NCBI RefSeq assembly: GCF_003334815.1
Contig: NZ_QOWO01000119.1
Source of the DNA: Escherichia coli
GTDB taxonomy: Bacteria; Pseudomonadota; Gammaproteobacteria; Enterobacterales; Enterobacteriaceae
Strand: one strand, 5' to 3'
DNA length: 724 bases
Under the pieces are notes generated by a model. That model worked only from the letters and a program-made list of their open reading frames with translations, was not told the DNA's origin and did no database searches. Below, one piece after another: positions 1 through 724 of the stretch (position 1 is its first letter; each line of letters opens with the position of its first letter). Made by a program: the position numbers and the translations under genes.

Positions 1-724
1 GTAAGTCACTGTGTGGATTATCATAACGGTAGCGGGTGATATCGCCGTCAGGGGCAGTTTCCTGAATCAGACGGCCCAATTCATCATATTCCCGGCGCAA
101 TTCCAGCCCGTCAGGCCCGGTGGCTGACGTTAACTGGTTGTGGTGGTTATAGTAAAACGCCGATGCCCTGCCATCCGGCGTGGTTATGCGCGTGATGAGG
201 CCCGTCACCACATCCGGGCTGTACTCTGTTGTCCTGCCTGCGGCATCCGTCTGTGCCCTGAGCCTGCCCACGGCGTCAAACTGACTCTGCGTGACGCTGC
301 CGTCCGCGTGTTCCTTTTTCACCACCCGCTTCAGCCCGGCTTCGCCCTGCGTGTGCAGCACTTCACGGCGGTCCAGGCTGTCGGTGATGGTGATGCGGTC
401 CTTCTCATACTGATACGTGTAGCTTAAGCCTGCCGGGTTTAGCTGTTCTGTCACCCGCCCGTCGCTGTCGTAACGGTAACGGATTTCCGGCCGGCCCGTG
501 TGACGGTGCGCCACCATCCGGCCCCGGTATTTATCATCGTAAGTAAAGCTGCGCACCTGTTTGCCACTACGGTCATACACCACCGCCAGTTCGCCGCGTG
601 GCGTCCAGCCATAGCGCACCAGCGGCGCGGCAGGTAAATTCTCCGGGTATTCCGGGTCGTGCGTCAGCCACACGGCAGACAGACGGATGCCGTTGTCCCG
701 GCCATATTCGGTGTAACCCGGCAG
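1..724 (-). CDS. Rhs-family / YD-repeat polymorphic-toxin core protein, internal fragment (partial at both ends; enterobacterial RhsA-E-like, paralog not assignable)
   Basis: Reverse-complement frame (codons at + 724-722 ... 4-2; + position 1 is the first base of the next codon) is open for all 241 codons with no stop. Translation: LPGYTEYGRDNGIRLSAVWLTHDPEYPENLPAAPLVRYGWTPRGELAVVYDRSGKQVRSFTYDDKYRGRMVAHRHTGRPEIRYRYDSDGRVTEQLNPAGLSYTYQYEKDRITITDSLDRREVLHTQGEAGLKRVVKKEHADGSVTQSQFDAVGRLRAQTDAAGRTTEYSPDVVTGLITRITTPDGRASAFYYNHHNQLTSATGPDGLELRREYDELGRLIQETAPDGDITRYRYDNPHSDL. It contains recurring YD-repeat signatures (xRYxYDxxGRxxxE/Q) at roughly regular intervals and is rich in R/Y/D/G/T, as expected for Rhs cores. 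Third codon positions are G/C-biased (about 21 of the first 30 codons). The family assignment rests on motif recognition and recollection of E. coli Rhs core sequence, not on a database search. Confidence 0.92.
   Translation of the reverse strand, partial: MPGYTEYGRDNGIRLSAVWLTHDPEYPENLPAAPLVRYGWTPRGELAVVYDRSGKQVRSFTYDDKYRGRMVAHRHTGRPEIRYRYDSDGRVTEQLNPAGLSYTYQYEKDRITITDSLDRREVLHTQGEAGLKRVVKKEHADGSVTQSQFDAVGRLRAQTDAAGRTTEYSPDVVTGLITRITTPDGRASAFYYNHHNQLTSATGPDGLELRREYDELGRLIQETAPDGDITRYRYDNPHSDL

Follow-up and report, generated by a model that had tools for sequence, protein, structure and literature searches.

Degenerate YD repeats in an internal fragment of an Escherichia coli Rhs core gene and their predicted beta-hairpins

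The DNA analysed here, hereafter called the window, is a stretch of 724 nucleotides from Escherichia coli. A single reading frame runs through it on the minus strand (2..724, in plus-strand numbering, which is used throughout). This frame is open over its whole length, with 241 codons, 0 stops and both ends open, and the remaining five frames contain 6-15 stops each. The 241-residue product is 100% identical to residues 277-517 of RhsA from E. coli K-12 (WP_000015300.1). The DNA is identical to K-12 rhsA at 723/724 positions, and the sole mismatch, at +401 (C here, T in K-12), is synonymous. As for other genomes, the 15 best E. coli megablast matches listed all show 99.9% identity to the window, and none reaches 100%. 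The GC content of the window is 60.4%, and that of its third codon positions 70.5%.

The same strand, frame and repeat content are found in K-12 RhsA and its paralogues RhsB and RhsC, which belong to the NCBIfam family NF041261 (RHS_core). The window corresponds to positions 285-525 of the 1261 positions of this model (E 2.7e-138). It scores 462.8 bits, against a curated whole-protein cut-off of 2000 bits, because only this part of the model is covered; the full K-12 RhsA, which contains the identical segment, reaches 2647.1 bits. Of 5426 complete E. coli genomes searched by megablast, 3885 contain the segment (median copy number 3). Records spanning at least 80% of the window number 3877, and the 15 best matches listed among them all fall under genes annotated as rhsA, rhsB, rhsC or RHS core. 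Since rhsA, rhsB and rhsC hardly differ in their core, the paralogue is not assignable from the window. Considering the frame without stops, the identity to RhsA, the NF041261 match and the annotation of the matching genes, the window almost certainly comes from within the conserved core of a polymorphic-toxin gene of the rhsA/rhsB/rhsC type, encoded on the minus strand, in which the recurring motifs are YD repeats that form one hairpin each.

The first-pass annotation had listed eight peptide blocks of the minus-strand translation as YD-type motifs of an Rhs-like protein, repeated in degenerate form at the protein level, and had proposed an HMM scan and a self dot-plot as checks. All eight blocks are found exactly where they had been placed, and both checks were carried out. 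Pfam RHS_repeat, TIGR01643 and RHS_core all match the translation. Pfam RHS_repeat (PF05593) gives 5 matches (i-E 2e-7 to 1e-3) and one weak match, and TIGR01643 (YD_repeat_2x) covers 4 stretches with 73.3 bits at a cut-off of 15.8 (E 1.1e-20). A BLOSUM62 self dot-plot contains 101 high-scoring diagonal segments of 11 residues, compared to 16.3 +/- 7.3 in shuffles, and the periodicity of ~21-22 residues stands ~11.6 SD above the shuffles. Offsets of 21, 42, 64, 85, 107, 128 and 149 correspond to a period of ~21.3 residues, and approximate unit anchors are spaced by 19-25 residues (mean 21.7). Profile matches and a period of ~20-22 residues with the motif YDxxGRL(I/T) characterise Rhs and other YD-repeat proteins, and the window has both. 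The reading as degenerate protein-level YD repeats is thus borne out, since HMM matches, gene identity, predicted structure, fold matches and literature agree.

The Rhs/YD family is among the largest families of repeat proteins. In a HMMER scan of 1.84 billion representative proteins, 40,950 relatives were retrieved at E <= 1e-3, of which 18,855 at E <= 1e-10. The nearest relatives, from Escherichia, Shigella, Salmonella and Citrobacter, bear the names RhsA/B/C or 'RHS repeat protein'. Some homologues carry a VgrG domain (PF05954). A PAAR or PAAR-like domain at the N-terminus, or genetic linkage to vgrG, either of which marks Rhs effectors delivered by type VI secretion, would be located outside the window.

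The YD-repeat consensus reads x-Y-x-Y-D-x-x-G-R-L-(I/T), and two tools were used to place it. The alignment A1 consists of the window, Rhs orthologues that are 44-81% identical to it, and canonical stretches of giant YD-repeat proteins (28-32%). The second tool is a unit HMM of 21 residues, seeded from RhsA residue 518 onward, i.e., outside the window. Iterated on RhsA, it returned 16 domains every round and showed no growth, and the rebuild may not have taken effect. The unit HMM gave a register for 7/8 of the listed blocks with weak scores. These are too weak to tile the window; therefore, register and unit count were taken from A1 and the structure model. In A1, the same number of blocks (7/8) lies on the Y-x-Y-D-x-x-G-x-L position, in agreement with the unit HMM.

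The remaining block, LAVVYDRSG (aa 46-54), is out of register, and its description as a YD motif does not hold: its Asp belongs to the turn between two hairpins. A1 sets the block opposite 'tsvTDxxG' of the canonical repeats, at the same position as 'IAVRDRLG' of Tse5. The unit HMM, derived from other parts of RhsA, placed no YD at LAVVYDRSG. According to the structure model, the block forms the second strand of hairpin 1 and the following inter-hairpin turn DRSGK. The true motif of the first unit is RYGWTPRGEL (aa 37-46), just upstream. The original list of units is consequently right for seven blocks, which are in register, but incomplete, as it lacks this motif and the units at aa 120-138 and aa 165-181. 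The two omitted degenerate units are VLHTQGEAGLKRV, with a 3-residue insertion and no literal YD, and EYSPDVVTGLI, with a 1-residue insertion. The useful outcome is a per-hairpin map, which also shows that units can lack a literal 'YD' dipeptide and that such a dipeptide can occur without marking a unit.

The hairpin geometry was predicted with AlphaFold2 on the excised fragment, using A1 with 25 sequences. Two homologues were left out of the structure alignment, P0095 for a frameshifted stretch and P0079 for an internal deletion. The model has a mean pLDDT of 90.7, with 183 residues at 90 or above. Its 19 beta-strands, all within residues 36-231, alternate with turns or loops of 2-7 residues; they make up 9 whole hairpins plus the opening strand of a tenth. 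Within a hairpin, the turn coincides with the motif's D-x-x-G, and between hairpins with a second D/N/T-x-x-G. The spiralling antiparallel sheet that characterises Rhs/YD-repeat proteins is thereby found in the predicted model. Strand limits given below were assigned by DSSP, and all features lie on the minus strand.

Ahead of the first regular hairpin, aa 1-35 (620..724) contain no unit of the canonical YD type and are largely irregular in the model, apart from a 2-residue bridge at aa 17-18. Here pLDDT is 38 over aa 1-10 and 82-84 over aa 11-30, and Pfam RHS_repeat has no match on aa 1-35. The segment may represent the passage between N-terminal plug and barrel. Its sequence (LPGYTEYGRDNGIRLSAVWLTHDPEYPENLPAAPL) is conserved among the enterobacterial Rhs cores in A1, without a counterpart in canonical YD proteins.

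Hairpin 1 (575..619, aa 36-50) is formed by VRYGW (strand 36-40), the turn TPRGE and LAVVY (strand 46-50), with the weak Pfam match at 42-75. Its motif is degenerate, with W for Y and T for D. In A1, RYGWTPRGEL stands opposite 'YTYNISGEL' and 'YGYDNKQNL', and VVYDRSG opposite 'HITDAEGG' and 'SVTDPMGN'. Hairpin 2 (500..559, aa 56-75) joins QVRSFTY (56-62) and MVAHRH (70-75) by the turn DDKYRGR and is matched by the unit HMM at 57-72. The turn of this YD unit is longer by 2 inserted residues, which appear as a 2-residue gap in the canonical sequences of A1. Hairpin 3 (440..484, aa 81-95) is a canonical YD unit, IRYRY (81-85), DSDGR and VTEQL (91-95), with a unit HMM match at 82-93 and a Pfam match at 85-116. 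The same Pfam match covers hairpin 4 (380..421, aa 102-115), in which YTYQYE (102-107) and RITITD (110-115) are connected by the tight turn KD. This hairpin is degenerate, with YE for YD and a turn that lacks Gly, and the unit HMM match (99-106) is weak. Hairpin 5 (311..367, aa 120-138) pairs REVLHTQ (120-126) and RVVKKE (133-138) across the loop GEAGLK, with a short helical turn at 129-131. It is strongly degenerate and has a 3-residue insertion, and A1 pairs it with 'ITYTYDTE---SRLV'. The Pfam match at 133-165 starts in its second strand.

Hairpin 6 (248..295, aa 144-159) is an FD variant with VTQSQF (144-149), DAVGR and LRAQT (155-159). It is covered by the Pfam match 149-186 (E 2e-7) and the unit HMM match 141-156. 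Hairpin 7 (182..232, aa 165-181), with TTEYSP (165-170), the turn DVVTGL and ITRIT (177-181), lies under the Pfam matches 149-186 and 174-206. P replaces the second Y, and A1 pairs EYSPDVVTGLI with 'SYTYD-DQGNL'. Hairpin 8 (119..166, aa 187-202) is a YN variant, ASAFYY (187-192), NHHNQ and LTSAT (198-202), matched by Pfam at 174-206 and by the unit HMM at 185-201. Hairpin 9 (56..103, aa 208-223) shows the canonical YDxxGRL(I/T), with ELRREY (208-213), DELGR and LIQET (219-223); its unit HMM match (212-223) is the best in the window, and Pfam matches at 213-235. Of hairpin 10, only the first strand and turn are present (2..40, aa 229-241, ITRYRYDNPHSDL; strand 229-231, unit HMM 230-235), as it is cut by the end of the window. 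Model confidence drops at this cut end. Hairpins 1, 4 and 5 have no literal YD and were recognised only by register and predicted structure.

Fold comparison leads to the same family. The top Foldseek matches in the PDB are Tse5 (8cp6, E 1.3e-17), RhsA of P. protegens (7q97) and an Rhs core of S. bongori (8qjb; TMq 0.73, rmsd 2.8 A, 212 columns), followed by the BC components of Tc toxins (4igl, 4o9x) and teneurins. A sequence search of the PDB yielded matches to 13 solved Rhs/teneurin-like chains, and no structure of E. coli RhsA/B/C was among the sequence or fold matches. The annotation's statement that the repeats of Rhs-like proteins form beta-hairpins of a shell is supported by the predicted hairpins, by these fold matches and by the literature (PMC10684867).

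The closest solved systems are the Rhs effectors of type VI secretion systems (T6SS): Tse5 (8cp6), RhsA (7q97), Rhs1/Tre23 (7pq5), 8qjb, Tse15 (8uxt) and RhsP (8h8a). They share the hairpin fold of the window (Foldseek E down to 1e-17, TMq up to 0.73) at ~26-29% identity in structural alignments. Their N-terminal delivery domains and C-terminal toxins differ, and all of these lie outside the window. For Tse5 of P. aeruginosa, phmmer aligns window residues 10-238 to Tse5 189-422 (E 1.3e-38). The YDxxGRL consensus and the use of D-x-x-G as hairpin turn are common to both (PMC10684867). Compared to Tse5-type effectors, the units of the window are more degenerate, as seen in hairpins 1, 4 and 5. 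The Tc BC components, YenB/YenC2 of Yersinia entomophaga (4igl) and TcdB2-TccC3 of Photorhabdus (4o9x), form the same spiral of RHS-repeat hairpins as a toxin-enclosing shell (Foldseek E ~1e-9 to 2e-7). They are only 14-17% identical to the window, their shell is made jointly by B and C (TcdB2-TccC3, YenB-YenC2), and it is not a T6SS/PAAR-type effector. The Tc BC shell docks on the TcA injection channel. Teneurins and teneurin-like proteins (6fb3, 9ifo) also share the YD-repeat shell fold (Foldseek E ~1e-8 to 5e-9), and teneurin-like proteins match the window by phmmer at E 1e-10. In contrast, teneurins are eukaryotic adhesion and signalling proteins, and their C-terminal domain lies outside the shell (PMC8636562).

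The proposed function in encapsulation, autocleavage and delivery is taken from solved homologues and the literature. Each YD unit is predicted to fold into one antiparallel beta-hairpin with the D-x-x-G of its motif as the turn, and a second, looser D/N-x-x-G turn to join successive hairpins. In the full protein, the hairpins would spiral into a closed shell, or cocoon, around the variable C-terminal toxin. The toxin would remain enclosed until cleavage at the aspartyl-protease motif DPxG...DPxG and could then be delivered into a neighbouring cell. The barrel of Tse5 consists of 40 hairpins with the consensus YDXXGRLV, in which DXXGR forms the turn and Tyr points towards the cavity (PMC10684867). 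For E. coli Rhs proteins, the similar consensus YDXXGRL[I/T] is cited in the same source. Toxins are caged in the shell in both Tc toxins and Rhs proteins (PMC8636562). The C-terminal part of RhsA from E. coli was reported to inhibit growth and to be neutralised by the downstream yibA (PMC3150448). The end of the Rhs-associated core carries the motif PxxxxDPxGL, or DPxG-x18-DPxG, an aspartyl autoprotease that demarcates the toxin (PMC3150448; PMC10684867). The shell, the cleavage motif, the toxin tip and the immunity gene fall beyond the limits of the window, and the K-12 copy alone was the source of what is described of them here. There, RhsA matches TIGR03696, the Rhs-associated core domain, with 83.2 bits at residues 1170-1247, the end motif is visible in the translation, and yibA directly follows rhsA. 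The YD repeats of the E. coli Rhs core are already known, structures of homologous shells have been available since 2013 (4igl), and nothing in the window departs from the known family. The conserved Rhs core is present in multiple copies in most E. coli genomes, and the significance of the result is small beyond correct annotation.

Several other explanations of the repeats were weighed. It is scarcely credible that the repetition exists at the DNA level, through recent duplication or gene conversion between units that would be seen as common oligonucleotides. The recurrence of aacggta noted in the first-pass annotation is real, as the 7-mer is present at 25..31 and 472..478 and has no third copy in the window, both sites coding for RYRYD, and the extended match between 21-35 and 468-482 reaches 13/15. 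It does not, however, exceed chance. The window contains 42 pairs of repeated 7-mers. Mononucleotide shuffling gives 23 +/- 6.5 and codon shuffling 31 +/- 8, with 11% of the codon shuffles reaching 42; repeated 8- to 10-mers are as frequent as expected or rarer. The two RYRYD blocks (CGC TAC CGT TAT GAT and CGT TAC CGT TAC GAC) are identical at 12/15 nucleotides, with only 2/5 synonymous third positions in common, and they share the 7-mer because the two peptides are identical. Between units, mean nucleotide identity is ~30% on approximate anchors, the register of which may be off by 1-2 residues, and on the same approximate anchors third positions agree at 38% of the identical residues. Tandem Repeats Finder detected no array with a period near 60-70 nt, only two chance-level rows of 19-20 nt, which confirms the earlier view that this is not a tandem DNA repeat array. 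The DNA-level reading was rejected on the k-mer shuffles, the third positions and Tandem Repeats Finder. The repeats are ancient and diverged, and not a DNA repeat array.

Even with protein-level repeats, the copy might be truncated, rearranged or pseudogenised, so that the repeats are real and no functioning shell is made here. Rhs fragments marked as pseudogenes do occur at E. coli loci, the database fragments P0014, P0070 and P0079 fuse distant parts of the core, and neither gene end is inside the window. Nevertheless, this is very improbable: the 241-codon frame is intact, its protein is identical to that part of the functional-length K-12 RhsA, and the annotated pseudogene fragments at the K-12 rhsA locus are C-terminal pieces and not the region of the window. 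The 15 best listed matches, among the 3877 records that span 80% or more of the window, also argue against it, since all 15 fall within genes annotated as rhsA/B/C or RHS core. A role of the repeats in binding ligands or carbohydrates at the surface was a hypothesis for Rhs and WapA before structures existed. Surface-exposed binding repeats instead of an encapsulating shell wall are very improbable, even more so than a defective copy. The solved homologues matched by both sequence and fold are all closed shells built from YD repeats, and according to the literature, Tyr lies on the cavity face and D-x-x-G in the hairpin turn (PMC10684867). The preferred reading remains that of YD repeats of an Rhs core that form the hairpins of a toxin-enclosing shell.

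The three database fragments mentioned above are partial Rhs proteins from short contigs. In P0014, RhsA ~136-460 is fused to 885-988; in P0070, RhsA 282 to ~415 to 1094-1256; and in P0079, RhsA 277-383 to ~531-779. They represent either deletions between YD units or assembly collapse. That they are real alleles produced by recombination between YD units, with shells of fewer hairpins, and not assembly artefacts, seems doubtful. If they were, the repeat units of the window would offer natural sites of breakage at which the toxin container changes in size.

Some further observations concern the K-12 locus and the window itself. Downstream of rhsA in K-12 lie yibA (a HEAT repeat protein), two pseudogenised 'RHS repeat-associated core' fragments, yibG (a Sel1 repeat protein) and a frameshifted Imm57 immunity gene. 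Such an arrangement of orphan toxin/immunity cassettes has been described for rhs loci (PMC3150448). In the window, an Rfam search of both strands found no family at gathering score. The longest open reading frame on the plus strand (140..427, 95 aa, GTG start) is antisense to the conserved rhs coding sequence. Long antisense reading frames can arise by chance in GC-rich coding DNA. At the K-12 locus, the GC content is 0.60-0.65 in the rhsA core and drops sharply to 0.36-0.46 in the tip at the 3' end of this gene, in yibA and in the orphan fragments downstream. This contrast between a GC-rich core and an AT-rich tip is a described feature of Rhs elements.
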